A stretch of DNA of 12,353 bases from Candidatus Bathyarchaeia archaeon (GTDB taxonomy: Archaea > Thermoproteota > Bathyarchaeia > TCS64), in assembly GCA_050014495.1 (NCBI GenBank), contig JBEKDF010000056.1:1-12353 (forward strand), given 5' to 3'. Below the pieces are notes generated by a model that ran no database searches, was not told the DNA's origin, and saw only the letters and a program-made list of their open reading frames with translations. Made by a program: the position numbers and the translations under genes. How positions within the stretch are numbered: the stretch's first letter is position 1; every line of letters starts with the position of its first letter. Shown piece by piece: positions 1 through 10,727 of this stretch.

Positions 1-467
1 AAACGATTGTATAGAAACTCAGTCTGATCCATAAAACGAGAATACCCCTGCTCCTCCCTTAACTCACTCAAAACTGGCTTAAGCTTCTCAAAATATTTTA
101 TGGTAACACCGGCGAACAGGAGGGCAACGTGGCGAATATCCAGTAAACCATCCCTTACAAGGAGGCCAAATCCCTCGAACCGCATCGCCATGATGTAGAG
201 GGCTTTAAGCATCTCCGGGTTTTCGACGAATTTCTTCTTGAATTCGGAGAAGTTCGTGTAATCTGTATTCACGACGTTGACCCACATCTCAACAAATTGA
301 GGTTCAGCGAGTTTATCGTAAACCGCCATCAACAGTTGTGCCTGCCTGGTCTCGAGGTTCGCCTTGAGGTTTCTCTGGTTCGTCCTCAGGGTGAGGACGT
401 AGTAGATAGCTGCTACCGTCACGCTTGCTGCTGTCACCAATACTCCAATTGTTTGAACGTCAACCAA
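1..467 (-). CDS. DUF4760-like membrane-anchored protein (partial, 3' end off window; missing from the ORF track)
   Basis: Manual translation from TTG at 467 is open to the window edge: MVDVQTIGVLVTAASVTVAAIYYVLTLRTNQRNLKANLETRQAQLLMAVYDKL...FEGFGLLVRDGLLD...YFEKLKPVLSELREEQG...TEFLYNR. It has an N-terminal TM helix plus the FEGxGxLVxxGxxD and ExLY motifs I associate with DUF4760. Paralog at 3560-3823. Confidence 0.85.
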   Translation of the reverse strand, partial: MVDVQTIGVLVTAASVTVAAIYYVLTLRTNQRNLKANLETRQAQLLMAVYDKLAEPQFVEMWVNVVNTDYTNFSEFKKKFVENPEMLKALYIMAMRFEGFGLLVRDGLLDIRHVALLFAGVTIKYFEKLKPVLSELREEQGYSRFMDQTEFLYNR

Positions 468-518: not shown

Positions 519-735
519 GGACTCTTTTTGAGGGTTATTATCATAGACCGAATTGCATGGTGTAGACACGTGTTTTTTCCTTACAATTGATGCAACTCAT
601 TCAACACTTCTATTGTCGGGTTGCATGAGTCTTTACCTTTGCTTGGCTCTTCTTAAAGACATACGAGCGATATTGCTTTTCCGATGTAAACCATGATGAT
701 AGATATGGTTATACTCGCATTCACTAGCCCTTTAA

Positions 736-861
736 ATTGGCTGGGTCGCTAGCCTCGACTCATCCAGAAACCCCGAAACCGTGGCACCTGCAAAGTCACC
801 GGATACGACGGGCCAATGGATGAGGGTGGGCCACTCATTGAGTAACAGCGACCCAGCCACT
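736..861 (-). ncRNA. Candidate structured ncRNA of unknown family (~125 nt, paired 5'/3' ends, multibranch)
   Basis: Perfect 13-bp inverted repeat (IR) TGGCTGGGTCGCT (738-750) / AGCGACCCAGCCA (847-859). Nested perfect 8-bp IR CTCATCCA (759-766) / TGGATGAG (817-824). Inner CCCG/CGGG (772-775 / 809-812). Hairpin GTTACTC-AAT-GAGTGGC on the minus strand (846-830). A minus-strand TATA (TTTATATG, 891-884) places the transcription start at ~860. Confidence 0.55.
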
Positions 862-883
862 ATTCAAGGGGTCAGCATCTAGA

Positions 884-900
884 CATATAAAAAAATTCTC
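884..900 (-). promoter_or_regulatory. BRE/TATA-like promoter for the candidate ncRNA
   Basis: Minus strand reads GAGAATTTTTTTATATG. The TATA ends ~24 nt upstream of the first base of the terminal stem. Confidence 0.45.
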
Positions 901-1083
901 TCATGGGTTGAGAGAGACGAATGAAAAGTGAAAGTGAAGTCACCGTAATCAGGAAGTTCTCTCCATCTAGTGTACTGGGAATTGCTTCCCGAAGTTCCCT
1001 CCAAACCCACTAGATTAAATGGGTCGTAACTCCGAGAAAAAATACCGAATATGTGCAGTTTCATTCTATCGCCCGTCTTCTTG

Positions 1084-1098
1084 GCGCGCGCGAAAAGC
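1084..1098 (+). repeat. GCGCGCGCGAAAAGC junction motif, copy A
   Basis: 14/15 identical to 1697-1711. The first 13 nt are identical to the minus-strand copy at 3580-3568. Confidence 0.75.
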
Positions 1099-1139
1099 AT
1101 TCTCGGGTCCTCATAAAGTACTTACAAAAAAGAAAACCT

Positions 1140-3559: not shown

Positions 3560-3823
3560 CTAGGTCATTTTCGCGCGCGCGTAAGCGTCGGGGTTGTTGT
3601 CGGACCTGTACTTCTTCTCGAAGTCGTCGTAGTCCTTCCACTCCATGTTCATCATCGTGACGTACTGTTTATACGCGTCTCCGTTCTGGAGGTAGTTTAC
3701 AGTTTGTAGTAGTAACTGTATGTGTCTGCTTCTTCTCGCCTCGCCGAGTGTACTGGCGTAGTAAATCGCCGCAACCGTCACGCTTGCTGTGACCAATACG
3801 CCAATCGTCTGCGCATCAACCAT
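3560..3823 (-). pseudogene. 3'-truncated DUF4760-like paralog
   Basis: N-terminus nearly identical to the 1-467 gene (MVDAQTIGVLVTA-SVTVAAIYY). It ends after 87 aa and lacks the FEGxGxLV half. The apparent homology stops at the GCGCGCGCG motif. Confidence 0.75.
3566..3580 (-). repeat. GCGCGCGCGAAAATG junction motif, copy C (inverted relative to A and B)
   Basis: Plus strand CATTTTCGCGCGCGC. Coincides with the truncation point of the DUF4760-like gene and with a composition shift. Confidence 0.75.
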
Positions 3824-3850
3824 TATTCATCACTGGAGAAGAATCGTGTG

Positions 3851-3870
3851 GAAGTGAGGATAAGGCTGTT
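3851..3870 (-). promoter_or_regulatory. Shared promoter block, copy 2
   Basis: GAAGTGAGGATAAGGCTGTT. Core at 3855-3865, 32 bp from the ATG at 3823. Confidence 0.7.
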
Positions 3871-4409
3871 TATTCGCAAACGCTAGAAAAATTCCATGCT
3901 TTGTATTGATTCAAATTTAAAGGGGTACCTAAGTATTTTTTAAAAGCTTCAAATTTAAACAGTTTTTCAGATGCGGGAAACTTCCGCATTCTATTTTCCT
4001 TGGAATGTTCTATCCCATTTCTACCAGGAGTTTCTTTCCAAGCCTTAAAACCCAATTCAACTTGTTCTTTAACAACTTTACTGGGAACAATGTAGTACTG
4101 GGGATTGTTAACTCCATTTTTTAGATTGACAAATACAAAAAAGAAGTCTGGTTTAGGAAGTATTTTTTCCTCGGGAGGACAAAACCATTCATCTACACTC
4201 CAAGATGTTTTTACTTGAAGCTCAATTTTTTCTCCCTTTGGTGTCTTAATAATTATGTCGACACCAGATGTGTTTCTAATAGTCGGTAACGCGATGTAAC
4301 CTCTACGGCTTAGTTCGCCACAGACAAAATGGACACCTGATGAACCTACCAGAGAATTATCAGGTTTGGGGAGAGGCATGAGCGACGGAGGCAGAGCTAA
4401 GTCAGCCAA
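3870..4409 (-). CDS. PD-(D/E)XK superfamily endonuclease (restriction-endonuclease-like)
   Basis: Motifs GxxGxHFVCGELSRRGY, GVDIII and ELQVKT (D...QxK variant), plus FFFVFV and QYYIVPS. Alternative start ATG at 4379. Confidence 0.8.
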   Translation of the reverse strand: MADLALPPSLMPLPKPDNSLVGSSGVHFVCGELSRRGYIALPTIRNTSGVDIIIKTPKGEKIELQVKTSWSVDEWFCPPEEKILPKPDFFFVFVNLKNGVNNPQYYIVPSKVVKEQVELGFKAWKETPGRNGIEHSKENRMRKFPASEKLFKFEAFKKYLGTPLNLNQYKAWNFSSVCE

Positions 4410-4415
4410 ATTATA

Positions 4416-4461
4416 ACACCTGAATTAGCAACAGGTGTAAATGAGGATAAGGTTATTGAGT
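4416..4461 (-). promoter_or_regulatory. Shared promoter block, copy 3, with a downstream 7-bp inverted repeat
   Basis: TAAATGAGGATAAGGTTATTGAGT (4438-4461), core 33 bp from the TTG at 4409. IR ACACCTG (4416-4422) / CAGGTGT (4432-4438) lies between the promoter and the start. Confidence 0.7.
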
Positions 4462-4902: not shown

Positions 4903-5199
4903 CTAGCGTGCCATAATTGCCCGGAGAGCATGTGCGGTTCTTTTAATGCACGTTTCATCAAGTTCCTTCAACTTCGAATGAGTTCCCCAACTTGTTCTAT
5001 TCCAGAACCTTTCATGAACATAGTATGCTACACTTGTGTAAATATTACTTCCAAGCATAAACCAAAACGCAGTTTGATATTGTCCGGTGAGCAGATAAAT
5101 AAAGGTAAAATCTAATATTATAATCAAAGCTCGATAAGTAATTGTTTTCACTAACGACCTTGTCCAAGGTTCTTTGACCTTACGATCCTCACCTACCAT
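4903..5199 (-). CDS. DUF2061 domain small membrane protein
   Basis: E..TRSLVKTITYR...YLLTG...YYVHERFWNRTSWG matches the DUF2061 signature as I recall it. ATG at 5199 has a GAGTGAG ribosome-binding site. The ORF can extend to GTG at 5265. Confidence 0.85.
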   Translation of the reverse strand: MVGEDRKVKEPWTRSLVKTITYRALIIILDFTFIYLLTGQYQTAFWFMLGSNIYTSVAYYVHERFWNRTSWGTHSKLKELDETCIKRTAHALRAIMAR

Positions 5200-5329
5200 C
5201 TTTAACTCACTCAAAAAATGTTCTGCACCCGTGCAGATAAGTGCACAGACTTTATTATGTTTCACCTCACCTCGCGTAAAATCGGATCTACTTAAACTAG
5301 TGGACGTTCTCCGCTATCCTGATTGAAAG

Positions 5330-6806: not shown

Positions 6807-7043
6807 TCATTTCACCGCTATGATAAATTCTAGACCGCACTTAGGGCACTTGGCCCTTCTTGTGGAGGCATGATTCAGGAGGTTGGTGTTAATACGCCAC
6901 ATGGGTTGGAGCCCATCCCACTTGATTGAAGAGAAAAAATCCAACGTGTTTTCCACATCTATCTCCCGGCCCATATGTTTGTTGGGGCATAGGAGCTTGT
7001 AGACGCCTGAGTTGAGCTTAATCTCTAAGATCGGGACGCTCAT
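6807..7043 (-). CDS. Small zinc-finger protein (CPNKH...CPKC)
   Basis: 78 aa. Its start overlaps the integrase stop (ATGA), and its stop is 1 nt from the next start. Confidence 0.7.
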   Translation of the reverse strand: MSVPILEIKLNSGVYKLLCPNKHMGREIDVENTLDFFSSIKWDGLQPMWRINTNLLNHASTRRAKCPKCGLEFIIAVK

Positions 7044-8341
7044 GCTCTCACCGCCTGATCTACGAGTAGTTCGCCGAGCCTCTTCTGACGGGCCTCATAA
7101 TCAGATTGGTTGAAGTTTTTCGGAACCAGGACTGGCGTACCCTCTGCAGCAGGCAGCTCATCAGTATGTTGAATCTGAGCCCTTAGCTCAGAGACTTCGG
7201 TCATCAGAGATTTCACGGCGTTAATCCATTCGGCTTGCTCCTGCTGTGTCTTGGCGATGAAGGTATCGTGTAGCTGATTCATCTCAACCTCAAGTTTAGC
7301 GTTCCTCAGCTCGTAAGCCCTAATCCGAATGTCGATCTCGTTGTTCTGCTTCTCCGCTTTCTCTCTAAGATCGATGATGGTCTTTGAGCCTGCGAAGATA
7401 CTCAGGTGTGGTTCAGCTTCGAGGTATCCCTTCTCAAGGAGTTCCTCAGCCTGATCAAACCGAGCGTAGATCGCCATCAGCCCGCTGGTGTGGCCCATCA
7501 AAGCTTCCGGTATGTCGGGATTCGTCCACTCGCCACGAGTCCTGAAGTATTTTCGGAGGTTGTGGGGCCTAATGGTCATCCGCCTTGTGGCGGAATCGAT
7601 CTTGAGTAGTTTCGCCCTCTCCAGAGCTTCACGCCAGAGGAAGAGATATGTGTCTGATCCGAAGGGGAAGATTCGGTCGTCCTCAGGGTCGAAGGGCATA
7701 CCACATCTAGCGGAAGCCTGTCGGAGGTAGTCAAGGCGAAATCCCAACCATTCCCCGAGCAGGCTCTTAGCCTCATCGGAGAACAGGACGAATCTTTTCC
7801 TCTTAGTCTTCGTTGTCTGATATCTAAGATTGAGCCTCGGTGGCTTACGGTCAAGCTCCATGTCTCCGAGTCTAAGTTGTAGGGCCTCCCCAACCCGCAT
7901 CCCAGATGAGGCGAGTACCAGCGTCAGGGTCTTGGCGCCGATTGGCATGAACTCAATGATCCTAGCCAGTTCGGCTGAGGTCGGTACGTGTTCTTCGCTT
8001 ATTGCCTCGTCAGCCTTGCCCAGGAGGTTCCTAGTGAAGTTACGGCTGAAGGTGATCTCGTTATCTTGGAGGTACCGTAGGATAGCAGAGAATCTGGCCA
8101 TCGTCGTCTTCGGTGCATCGTCTTTGGTCTGGTCTCGGAATCTCAGAAGGTCTCCCCGGAAGTCCCGAGGAGTTGAGACGTATTGTAGACTGAATTCGTC
8201 ATATCGTTTCTCGTCATCGCTTTTCTTGAGTTCTGGGTAAAGGGTCCGAAGGTAGCACCGGATGATGCTCTTGTAGAGGTTATGTGTGCTCTTCATCTGG
8301 TATTGGGCCAAGAATTGGCTGAGGTTGTACTTCTCGGTCAT
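7040..8341 (-). CDS. Tyrosine recombinase/integrase with a C-terminal coiled-coil extension
   Basis: Catalytic set present: SSGMRVGE (R), TTKTKR (K), HNLRKYF (HxxR), LMGH (H) and AIYAR (Y). A ~120-aa helical tail follows. Confidence 0.95.
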   Translation of the reverse strand: MTEKYNLSQFLAQYQMKSTHNLYKSIIRCYLRTLYPELKKSDDEKRYDEFSLQYVSTPRDFRGDLLRFRDQTKDDAPKTTMARFSAILRYLQDNEITFSRNFTRNLLGKADEAISEEHVPTSAELARIIEFMPIGAKTLTLVLASSGMRVGEALQLRLGDMELDRKPPRLNLRYQTTKTKRKRFVLFSDEAKSLLGEWLGFRLDYLRQASARCGMPFDPEDDRIFPFGSDTYLFLWREALERAKLLKIDSATRRMTIRPHNLRKYFRTRGEWTNPDIPEALMGHTSGLMAIYARFDQAEELLEKGYLEAEPHLSIFAGSKTIIDLREKAEKQNNEIDIRIRAYELRNAKLEVEMNQLHDTFIAKTQQEQAEWINAVKSLMTEVSELRAQIQHTDELPAAEGTPVLVPKNFNQSDYEARQKRLGELLVDQAVRA

Positions 8342-9130: not shown

Positions 9131-9727
9131 GTGAATATTTTGTATAGGGATCAGAAGAAGTACGAGGAGTACGCCTACGTTTTAGATTACCTCGAACATG
9201 GCCGTCCCGGGGCGCCGAGGACCCCACACTCCTCAAGTGGGGTTATCCAGATGGTCGGCGAGTCTTACTTCACCCTACTAGAAGCTTCTCCGAAAATTGA
9301 CGCTGAATACAATCCCCGCGATAGGATATTTGTAGGCAAGGGCGACAGGGGTCTCGTCTCCCACATCATAGGGAGAGTCACTTACTCCGAACTCACCAAC
9401 TCAGCGAGGGCCGAGCTGCCGGGGGTAGTAGAGATAATTGTTAGGGCGAGTGAGCCATTCTTCGTCAACTTCTTTAATACAAGTCAGTCCGTCACGCCTC
9501 GGATGCACAGCCTCGAGCTTATCCCGGGTATAGGGAAGAGGTTAATGTTCCAGATCCTCGATCTCAGGGAAAAAGCCCCTTTTACAAGCTTCAGGGACAT
9601 CGAGGAGAGAGTCAATTTAAAGGATCCAGCGGCACAGCTCGCCAAGAGAGTCCTTGAGGAGCTCAGCCAGGAGGAGAAGTACCTCCTCTTCACTAGGCCA
9701 AGCGCCGACCATGTCTATCAGCAGTAA
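9131..9727 (+). CDS. DUF655 family putative RNA-binding protein
   Basis: YEEYAYVLDYL, GESYFTLLE, FFN...TPRMHSLELIPGIGK and FTSFRDIEERV motifs. Known rpl21e-rpoF-DUF655 order. Confidence 0.93.
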   Translation: MNILYRDQKKYEEYAYVLDYLEHGRPGAPRTPHSSSGVIQMVGESYFTLLEASPKIDAEYNPRDRIFVGKGDRGLVSHIIGRVTYSELTNSARAELPGVVEIIVRASEPFFVNFFNTSQSVTPRMHSLELIPGIGKRLMFQILDLREKAPFTSFRDIEERVNLKDPAAQLAKRVLEELSQEEKYLLFTRPSADHVYQQ

Positions 9728-9772
9728 CCGCTGACTATCTTTTTAACCCTGAGGGGTATTTTCTCTCCCTGA

Positions 9773-10120
9773 TTGGTCTTGAGGCCCGACGAAGAGATCG
9801 GGGAGCTCAGGAAGGAGCTTCAGAGCTTCCGCACTGAGACGCAACAGAGGCTCGAATTGATATAGGGTGAGGTCACGAAGCGGGTCAGCCTGAACTACAA
9901 CAGGGCGATCGTCGATTACCTAAAGCGCGCGGTCAACTCACAATGCTCCAGGAACCGATTGTCCCAGTCTGGAAATAATATGATAGAAATGCTCGATCCT
10001 GTAGCCATGGAACAGGGTGTTCTCATCCCCGTCGTCCATAGGGTGCGACTGCAGGTCATGCTCAGCATCTTTAAGGGGGGAGAACACGTCGCTGACTTCA
10101 CAGCTGCAACCCACAGTTGA
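9773..10120 (+). pseudogene. Decayed ArsR-like winged-helix regulator
   Basis: One frame from TTG at 9773: MVLRPDEEIGELRKELQSFRTETQQRLELI*(TAG 9863-9865)GEVTKRVSLNYNRAIVDYLKR...LDPVAMEQGVLIPVVHRVRLQVMLSIFKGGEHVADFTAATHS*. The 'LxPxxHxxRLxxxxxxxxG' segment resembles an ArsR start, but the frame stops before the recognition helix. Confidence 0.6.
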
Positions 10121-10226
10121 TTAATTTACGTTATCACTTATATTGTAAAATATTTTTCCGAGTCCACATGTTGTGGAGAGCCATTATGTTTTTAAGAATC
10201 CTGATGTGCATGTCTGTGGATAAACC

Positions 10227-10727
10227 TTGAATGCCAGGAACTTCAGAAACCCGGATCGCATGGCTTACACGCGGCGAAAGTTCATGGGCGGCATCCCCGG
10301 AAGCAAGATCGTAAAGTTCACCATGGGTAACACGGGCAAGAAGTTCCCGATGAGGGTGGAGCTCGTAAACCTCGAGCATGGTCAGATCAGGAACAATAGC
10401 CTCGAGTCCGCCCGAATAGCCGCCAATAGGCAGCTGGAGCTCCAGTTAGGCAAGGACCTCTATATGATGAAGGTGGTACCATTTCCTCATATAGTGCTCA
10501 GGGAACACAAGAGGATTAACGTCGCCCAGGCTGACCGTTTCCAGGAGGGAATGAAACGCCCATACGGCAAACCCACCGGTACCGCAGCGCGCGTGAAGCG
10601 CGGCGAGTCCCTGATCGTTATCGAAGTCGAACAGGAGGGTGTCGAGGTCGCGAGGGAAGCTCTGAAGAGGGCGATGGACAAGTTCCCGCTACCGAGCAGG
10701 ATCTTCGTCACAGAGAACACAGAGTAA
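10227..10727 (+). CDS. rpl10e: 50S ribosomal protein L10e (uL16)
   Basis: AYTRRKFMGGIPGSKI, QIRNNSLESARIAANR, FPHIVLREHK and ADRFQEGMKRPYGKPTGTAARV motifs. Confidence 0.97.
   Translation: MNARNFRNPDRMAYTRRKFMGGIPGSKIVKFTMGNTGKKFPMRVELVNLEHGQIRNNSLESARIAANRQLELQLGKDLYMMKVVPFPHIVLREHKRINVAQADRFQEGMKRPYGKPTGTAARVKRGESLIVIEVEQEGVEVAREALKRAMDKFPLPSRIFVTENTE

Follow-up and report, generated by a model that had tools for sequence, protein, structure and literature searches.

A Previously Uncatalogued Family of Small Folded RNAs in Bathyarchaeia, Some of Them Beside GINS-MCM-Type Promoters

The locus described here raises the question of whether a stretch without a convincing gene, located between a DUF4760 gene (3-467, minus strand) and an open reading frame at 1242, encodes a structured RNA, from which strand, and for what function. 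The window, the entire stretch of 12,353 nucleotides that was analyzed, is contig C56 of a Candidatus Bathyarchaeia archaeon genome (G000), and its features are collected in Table 1. A discrete, promoter-driven, end-paired small RNA that is absent from Rfam had originally been predicted, and this description is now supported for the predicted transcript. The element belongs to a previously uncatalogued family of small folded RNAs in Bathyarchaeia, and it is very probably a functional noncoding RNA.

Table 1. Features of the window and of the RNA element
Feature	Position	Strand	Remarks
Accessory island of small genes with a tyrosine integrase	left part of window; integrase 7040-8341
Decayed 5' end of ogg (N-glycosylase/DNA lyase)	577-626	-	homologous to G000:C21:25610 onward; in-frame stop
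Copy of the divergent ogg/GINS-MCM promoter of the host genus and first ~16 nt of the GINS leader	627-754	+
TATA box	709-714	+	start predicted at G739 (+31), where the stem has its first G; unchanged across 6 aligned loci
Terminal stem, 5' arm	738-750	+	pairs with 847-859; sequence derived from the GINS leader
Predicted ~121-nt noncoding RNA, type A member	739-859	+	family model, folding, covariation
Helix P1b (752-755/828-831), 3x3 loop, helix P2 (759-766/817-824)	752-766 (5' strand)	+
Core, 5' strand	767-780	+	lower loop GAAA; 2-bp helix 771-772/811-812; upper loop GA-N-A; helix P4 779-780/801-802
Variable tip hairpin	781-800	+
Core, 3' strand	801-816	+	AUAC, purine-rich run, CCAA
Side hairpin, insertion specific to the window copy	832-846	+	gap in L036; absent from the family model
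Terminal stem, 3' arm	847-859	+	pairs with 738-750
Convergent g12-type GINS-MCM promoter (short palindrome, then TATA)	884-917	-	antisense start predicted at ~861-860
Housekeeping genes rpl21e, rpoF, DUF655, rpl10e, dph2	right part of window

The element is present as a single copy in G000 by own-genome searches in which the model scored 150 of 962 candidates. One Logan contig, which may be the source of this very DNA, covers 560-1000 with zero differences, and no variants were found inside the element in eight DNA sequencing runs aligned to the window. The island integrase abuts rpl21e; the window contains no tRNA, and no attachment repeat was found. A fragment of a related integrase, together with one of the next small gene, is located at approximately 36443-36909 of contig C21, which also holds the ogg/GINS locus. 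A repeat of approximately 45 bp occurs just upstream of small gene starts at 474-517, 3838-3874, and 4425-4461. There are 156 copies of this repeat on 46 contigs of G000 (at most 3 mismatches), in co-oriented arrays with a spacing of 0.4-1.3 kb and an integron-like layout, and the window runs on into an array on C86. A truncated paralogue of the DUF4760 gene occupies 3560-3823, the DUF2061 gene at 4903-5265 has a copy on C71 that is 87.5% identical, and C40, C53, and C80 hold further copies of several island genes. Alternating GC runs at 1084-1098, 1697-1711, and 3564-3584 are found at junctions between island modules. The 500-bp gap between DUF655 and rpl10e (9727-10227) contains short broken frames that resemble a decayed small regulator gene, with no Rfam hit.

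Searches of Rfam 15 gave nothing near threshold on the RNA, using the window, 690-930 alone (best 8.8 bits, E 9.5), or seven homologous loci. ARAGORN found no tRNA or tmRNA genes in the window. The earlier failure to match the element to tRNA, 5S, SRP, or RNase P RNA was also borne out; RF00001, RF01857, and RF00373 match real genes elsewhere in G000 and not this one. Likenesses to SAM, FMN, hammerhead, and hairpin-ribozyme RNAs were discarded for lack of Rfam support. Archaeal guide RNAs carry C and D boxes (C/D type) or a K-turn and an ACA tail (H/ACA type), and by inspection none of these features is conserved in our alignments. No published description of the family was found in literature searches, and it is conceivable that the supplements of the 2017 and 2021 motif catalogues hold an entry that never reached Rfam.

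The 13-bp terminal stem and the 8-bp helix P2 are perfect Watson-Crick helices, as had been predicted. Two inner stems required amendment. Pairing of 772-775 with 809-812 is perfect, but the homologues conserve the register 771-772/811-812, and the stem 779-785/795-802 is present but contains one bulged base and one G-U pair. The alternative local pairings noticed at 739-754 and 743-761 exist, but each needs a G-U pair on the plus strand. The folding energy of 738-859 was -58.0 for the plus strand (z -5.27) and -59.7 for the minus strand (z -4.46), with 0 of 200 shuffles as good in either case, and a value of -58 was reached by 1 of 4000 random 122-mers of G000 with the same GC content. However, 755-830, the inner part, gives ordinary values when folded by itself (z -1.35 and -1.06), and G000 contains 39 perfect inverted repeats of at least 12 bp at a spacing of 60-200 nt; for these reasons, the strong evidence is comparative and not energetic.

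A BLAST search over 79 genomes of the order gave a single short hit outside G000. A single-sequence covariance model found three homologues, and the set was then extended using patterns and two further models. Given the filters used and the incompleteness of the genomes, absence below means not found. In the end, 17 distinct sequences were retained; type A accounts for 15 of them and type B for a tandem pair in locus L156, where L-numbers denote individual loci and types A and B are two forms of the family. The family model R3, the alignment of which includes 739-859 itself, scores this segment at 72.1 bits. All members fall within a single Bathyarchaeia family or next to it, and among the 79 genomes of the order they were found in 7, from three genera. 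None were found in 150 other genomes of the phylum, with 29 candidates scored per genome, and a class-wide pattern scan gave true members in 6 of 401 genomes, all from one family. The exact pattern matched 12 times across GTDB, six of these being true by the model and six due to chance; five of the true members are titled Bathyarchaeia, and one is titled bacterium yet has the same archaeal flanking genes. The L079 record, titled as a bacterial MAG, holds an archaeal dppA-RNA-TackOD1 locus and is likely mislabelled or misbinned. Metagenome contigs contributed 15 pattern matches, of which two repeat the window and one is due to chance.

The type B pattern was matched in G049 only, four other hits being at control level. 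Four pattern scans of viral contigs were empty, and a fifth gave six matches, all inside coding regions and not scored by the family model. A pattern allowing three mismatches was swamped by chance, with 28 of its loci scoring 17.4 bits or less. L026, L042, L046, L047, and L058 were dropped as chance matches, L032 and L041 repeat the window, and L030, L033, L035, and L039, which are repeats or near-repeats of other members, were excluded from the final count. A weak model hit of 14 bits at L168:1660-1766 (minus) has the outer helices of the family with a different core and is possibly a third type.

What is conserved in the RNA is a rod whose two A-rich internal loops, GAAA facing CCAA and GA-N-A facing AUAC, are set apart by a 2-bp helix. 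With the exception of N, the loop letters are identical in 15 of 15 type A members, and the 17 invariant unpaired positions of this type are 10 A, 4 C, 2 G, and 1 U. When the 17 sequences were aligned by fitting to the family model, 96.1% of the cells paired and 10 of the 19 pairs showed compensatory change; 0 of 500 shuffles were as good, and 36-47% of the cells paired when the partners were slid. In the unfitted MAFFT alignment of 14 sequences, the corresponding values were 95.0% and 8 of 19 pairs changed on both sides, and RNAalifold recovered the same helices unaided from the plain MAFFT alignment. The covariation that had originally been named as a check is found among the homologues. The compensatory changes are spread over four helices and several lineages (3 of 4 pairs in P1b, 3 of 8 in P2), and the helix pairs of the core change together in L045 and L156. 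Because many members are close kin, the compensatory cells amount to perhaps a dozen events.

The terminal stem, tip, and side hairpin are variable, and the long terminal stems of the other stand-alone members are unrelated in sequence. The distance between the P4 arms in type A is 20, 21, 22, 30, or 43 nt, and the tip sequence is not conserved. Since the tip length varies by non-multiples of three, the RNA is judged to be noncoding; a small peptide was rejected because the frame is not kept. Type B differs in its lower loop, which is reversed end to end relative to that of type A, and a UAA strand lies opposite GA and a bulge in the upper loop. The tandem type B copies, L156:714-820 and 1028-1135 (minus), directly follow the gene for the terminase large subunit; their 64-nt inner parts are identical and their outer stems differ, which suggests a recent conversion or duplication.

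Region 577-754, which leads into the RNA of the window, is a decayed copy of the divergent ogg/GINS-MCM region of the host, and its promoter part (627-754) is 73-76% identical to the ogg/GINS-MCM region of G000, G071, and G074. The ogg gene on C21 matches NF002305 above its cut-off, the gene behind the real host promoter matches Gins23 (E 2e-16, below cut-off), and MCM is next. Using an own-genus matrix trained on three relatives, the promoter copy in the window scored 32.8 bits, second-best in G000 after the real GINS promoter, and metagenome member L036, which has the same ogg/GINS-MCM promoter copy, scored 34.2 bits. The homology to the GINS region reaches +46, with background beyond; the likeness to the GINS leader over 16 nt is 12/16 for L036 and 9/16 for the window, compared with 3-5/16 further on in the same register. 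Because this likeness continues for 16 bases past G739 and then stops, we conclude that the 5' arm of the terminal stem was built from the GINS leader.

The minus-strand TATA of the original prediction is present, and the promoter to which it belongs is probably real. With a matrix trained only on five GINS-MCM promoters of g12, the sister genus, 917-884 is the best of 6.2 million sites in G000 (21.6 bits). The same matrix gave 38.8 bits for L020, also on the minus side, and 39.9 bits (downstream copy of L156) and 17.1 bits (L045) on the plus side. Five other loci match, at 83-93%, the stretch that precedes the second type B copy, and every one of them is a g12 ogg/GINS-MCM junction. A GINS-MCM-type promoter is thus located beside the RNA in five independent loci (window, L036, L156, L045, and L020), and convergent promoters of this type on both sides are seen in the window only. 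No g12-type GINS promoter was found on either side of the 10 chromosomal g12 copies scored, and the link to the helicase is therefore not universal. What these chromosomal copies have in common is another element, palindromic and TATA-like, which lies on the plus strand 53-56 nt ahead of the stem. Judged from these sequences, the RNA gene appears to have repeatedly acquired copies of the host GINS-MCM promoter, in chromosomes, in islands, and in a provirus-like locus.

Two further observations concern these promoters. In L021, L022, L023, L028, L029, and L034, a conserved palindrome overlaps the TATA-like box 53-56 nt before the stem; it is present at filled dppA-TackOD1 sites and not at empty ones, and half of it recurs in L036. 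The ogg/GINS-MCM promoter (L164-L167 and L169; window 672-715 and 884-917) shows conservation well above that of ordinary intergenic DNA. Its g12 version has a short palindrome, with two 6-base arms around a 5-base gap, immediately before the TATA, and this is a candidate operator of the helicase operon.

The functional strand is probably the plus strand, as far as can be told from the sequences. The minus strand had been put forward originally, and the plus TATA within the copied GINS-MCM promoter was overlooked. The distance from the plus TATA to the first G of the stem is 30 nt in 5 of 6 stand-alone copies and 33 nt in the sixth, with stem ends set by hand, while the minus TATA offsets scatter from 31 to 38 nt or are missing (2 of 6 copies). 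The derivation of the 5' arm from the GINS leader and the A-rich composition of the invariant loops also speak for plus. G-U pairs outnumber A-C oppositions 4:1 in favor of the plus strand in the model pairs, with one more G-U in L156; an unrestricted wobble count that includes the flanks is 10:9 and therefore does not separate the strands.

In the leading alternative, the family is the same, the working molecule is the minus strand (from ~860 to 738), and the plus promoter makes the antisense RNA. The folding energy favors this assignment by a mean of 8.6 kcal/100 nt over 15 members, the minus strand being better in 13 of 15, and RNAalifold gives -21.4 for minus versus -15.7 for plus. The true strand folded better for 32 of 40 tRNAs and 24 of 29 RNase P RNAs used as calibration; the J11/12-P12 piece of RNase P RNA has almost no strand advantage. 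In addition, two invariant A-C oppositions would turn into G-U pairs, the window and L020 have a GINS-type promoter directed at the RNA from the minus side, and the side hairpin pairs fully on the minus strand only (-6.1 versus -1.6 kcal/mol on plus), as originally noted; this hairpin is missing from the closest homologue, L036. However, the energy gap is a matter of composition, because every A or C of one strand is a U or G of the other. The covariation term is higher for plus, a minus-strand RNA would have invariant loops rich in U, and the TATA offsets are regular on plus only. We consider a functional minus strand doubtful.

The conservation is found in unpaired purine-rich loops and not in a single-stranded seed, as one would expect if the RNA is recognized by its shape, and on this basis we favor a protein-binding decoy or scaffold in trans. 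Our main reading is that the plus-strand RNA acts in trans by binding protein through the two A-rich internal loops, and we place its probability at roughly 0.5. Bacterial 6S RNA is an end-paired rod with a poorly paired center that serves as a protein decoy. The RNA described here may resemble it in its end-paired form and poorly paired center, as a functional analogy only; it is shorter, accessory, and archaeal, without an Rfam hit, and where 6S RNA has one large bubble it has two small A-rich loops, short conserved helices dividing the center. In vertebrates, Y RNAs take part in the initiation of replication through protein binding (PMC4726728), and this is the role that the promoter would suggest here. 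Y RNAs and nematode stem-bulge RNAs (sbRNAs) share with this family a size of approximately 100 nt, ends paired in a long stem, and a variable loop, and differ from it in having a conserved bulged-C Ro60 site, GUG-CAC, and UUAUC (PMC4726728). The terminal stem in the window is perfect, with no Ro60-type bulge, and GUG-CAC occurs in the tip stem of the window only and is not conserved across members. No TROVE/Ro60 gene (PF05731) was found in G000, which is 96% complete.

It is also possible that the RNA is a regulator that acts by base pairing, with a C-rich tip that targets the ribosome-binding sites of mRNAs and a core that only binds a chaperone. The tips are C-rich and weakly folded, and that of L020 contains CCUCC. 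However, the tip is the least conserved part in both sequence and length and has no shared seed, whereas the internal loops are invariant, and we regard a base-pairing regulator as improbable.

The letters of the internal loops led us to consider a free-standing offshoot or mimic of the J11/12-P12-J12/13 module of RNase P RNA that would bind tRNA elbows or RNase P proteins. In the RNase P RNAs of the order, the GAAAC and GA-N-ACC of the element recur, N being variable there as well, together with a 3' block much like its own, and the double T-loop module at J11/12-J12/13 (PMC3664808, PMC4919913, PMC4810234) has comparable letters, a variable N among them, at the foot of a variable helix. A descriptor composed to fit both picks out nothing in 6.2 Mb except the RNase P gene and the element and is found in 15 of 15 members, 25 of 26 RNase P RNAs, and 1 of 20000 shuffles, but it was written after both sequences were seen. 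Neutral matrices rank RNase P 73rd in the genome and the reciprocal test ranks the window 186th, so that the likeness is not significant under neutral scoring; the element has no catalytic domain, model R2 does not align to the module, and the lower loop is reversed in type B. The signature of interdigitated double T-loop RNAs (RNase P, T-box, L1 stalk) is AGNNA...UGNNA (PMC3664808), and the family lacks it. AGAAA occurs in the window only and GGAAA in 14 of 15 type A members; that first base covaries as part of a Watson-Crick pair, and UAC-R is found in place of UGNNA in 15 of 15. An offshoot or mimic of RNase P RNA is quite unlikely. Another point of comparison is UAA/GAN, an internal-loop module that docks on other helices (PMC8284323). 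Its signature (PMC2615604), UAA facing GA and a bulged N between closing Watson-Crick pairs, fits the two type B copies with their canonical UAA, and the family has GA and a variable bulged base opposite a UA strand; UAA/GAN is a structural module and not a family, the type A upper loop has UAC and not UAA, and the geometry here is a predicted one.

The genomic contexts bear on the two weakest readings. In g12, the RNA is flanked on one side by dppA, in some loci accompanied by a Na/Ca exchanger gene, and on the other by a TackOD1 gene or purN. It occupies a fixed chromosomal site among housekeeping genes in five g12 genomes, and in 10 others dppA and TackOD1 are adjacent and the site is empty of RNA. 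In G015, the RNA is located between a tRNA methyltransferase (TrmI) and an M42 peptidase, and in L156 it follows a terminase gene in a provirus-like locus. Since the neighbors differ between loci and the dppA-TackOD1 site exists without it, the RNA is a stand-alone gene. The description as mobile-element-encoded holds for the window copy, which is located in an integrase island, but not for the five g12 genomes with the fixed chromosomal site. A MITE was rejected (no target duplication, ends not conserved), as was an attC-like site, since by inspection the element has no end motifs.

The original suggestion of a single-stranded DNA origin or recombination substrate corresponds to a DNA-level hairpin opened by transcription from both convergent promoters. 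The element does fold as DNA (z -4.6 and -5.2), and two copies are in mobile contexts, the integrase island and the site beside the terminase gene. However, no Rep, relaxase, or recombinase was found among the ORFs listed around the chromosomal copies, the ends are not conserved in sequence and show no visible target duplication, and the start of the stem is tied to the TATA at a fixed distance; a DNA hairpin is thus very improbable. Least probable of all is a cis-acting leader, either riboswitch or attenuator, for a downstream gene. In its favor, the RNA precedes a TackOD1/response-regulator gene in most g12 loci, but the neighbors share nothing and no consistent downstream gene family was found in the same orientation, and the stretch further down that is complementary to the core, once considered as an expression-platform pairing, is part of the TackOD1 promoter and is present at empty sites with one change.

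We return to the plus-strand, protein-binding RNA. Because unrelated copies adjoin GINS-MCM-type promoters, the RNA would be made when the helicase operon is on. Transcription would start at G739, with the long terminal stem protecting both ends, and the invariant loops, one of them UAA/GAN-like, would form a noncanonical surface for which the stems and tip serve as the scaffold. If it is co-expressed with the helicase operon, the RNA would most likely sequester or recruit a protein of the replication or growth stage. The promoter at 917-884 may produce a full-length antisense RNA that pairs with the sense RNA and switches it off. RNA I and RNA II of ColE1 are a convergent sense-antisense pair of overlapping complementary RNAs in replication. 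The arrangement in the window would be analogous in its convergent promoters, overlapping complementary RNAs, and replication-related setting; unlike ColE1, both promoters here are copies of the promoter of the host helicase operon, and no origin is evident. Our reading assumes regulation of the GINS-MCM promoter by growth or the cell cycle in these archaea, for which no literature was found. A direct role of the RNA in replication control is at present unlikely, and we hold with equal reserve the complete scheme of an archaeal riboregulator wired into the replication program, timed with the helicase, bound to a replication or cell-cycle protein, and switched by an antisense RNA.

Few structured noncoding RNA families have been catalogued for uncultured archaea, and this one offers a fold backed by covariation, natural empty and filled sites, and a variant with a flipped loop. 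The surprise is the promoter. Beside the RNA stand near-copies of the promoter that serves GINS-MCM, an essential operon. They occur across genera and contexts, come in two versions, each specific to a lineage, and face either way. A candidate for the operator of the helicase operon emerges as well, and the finding frames the question of whether archaeal replication control has an RNA partner. We know of no archaeal functional counterpart of Y RNA or 6S RNA. If the proposed scheme is true, this RNA would be such a counterpart, and it would provide mobile elements with a tool to tune the replication of their host.
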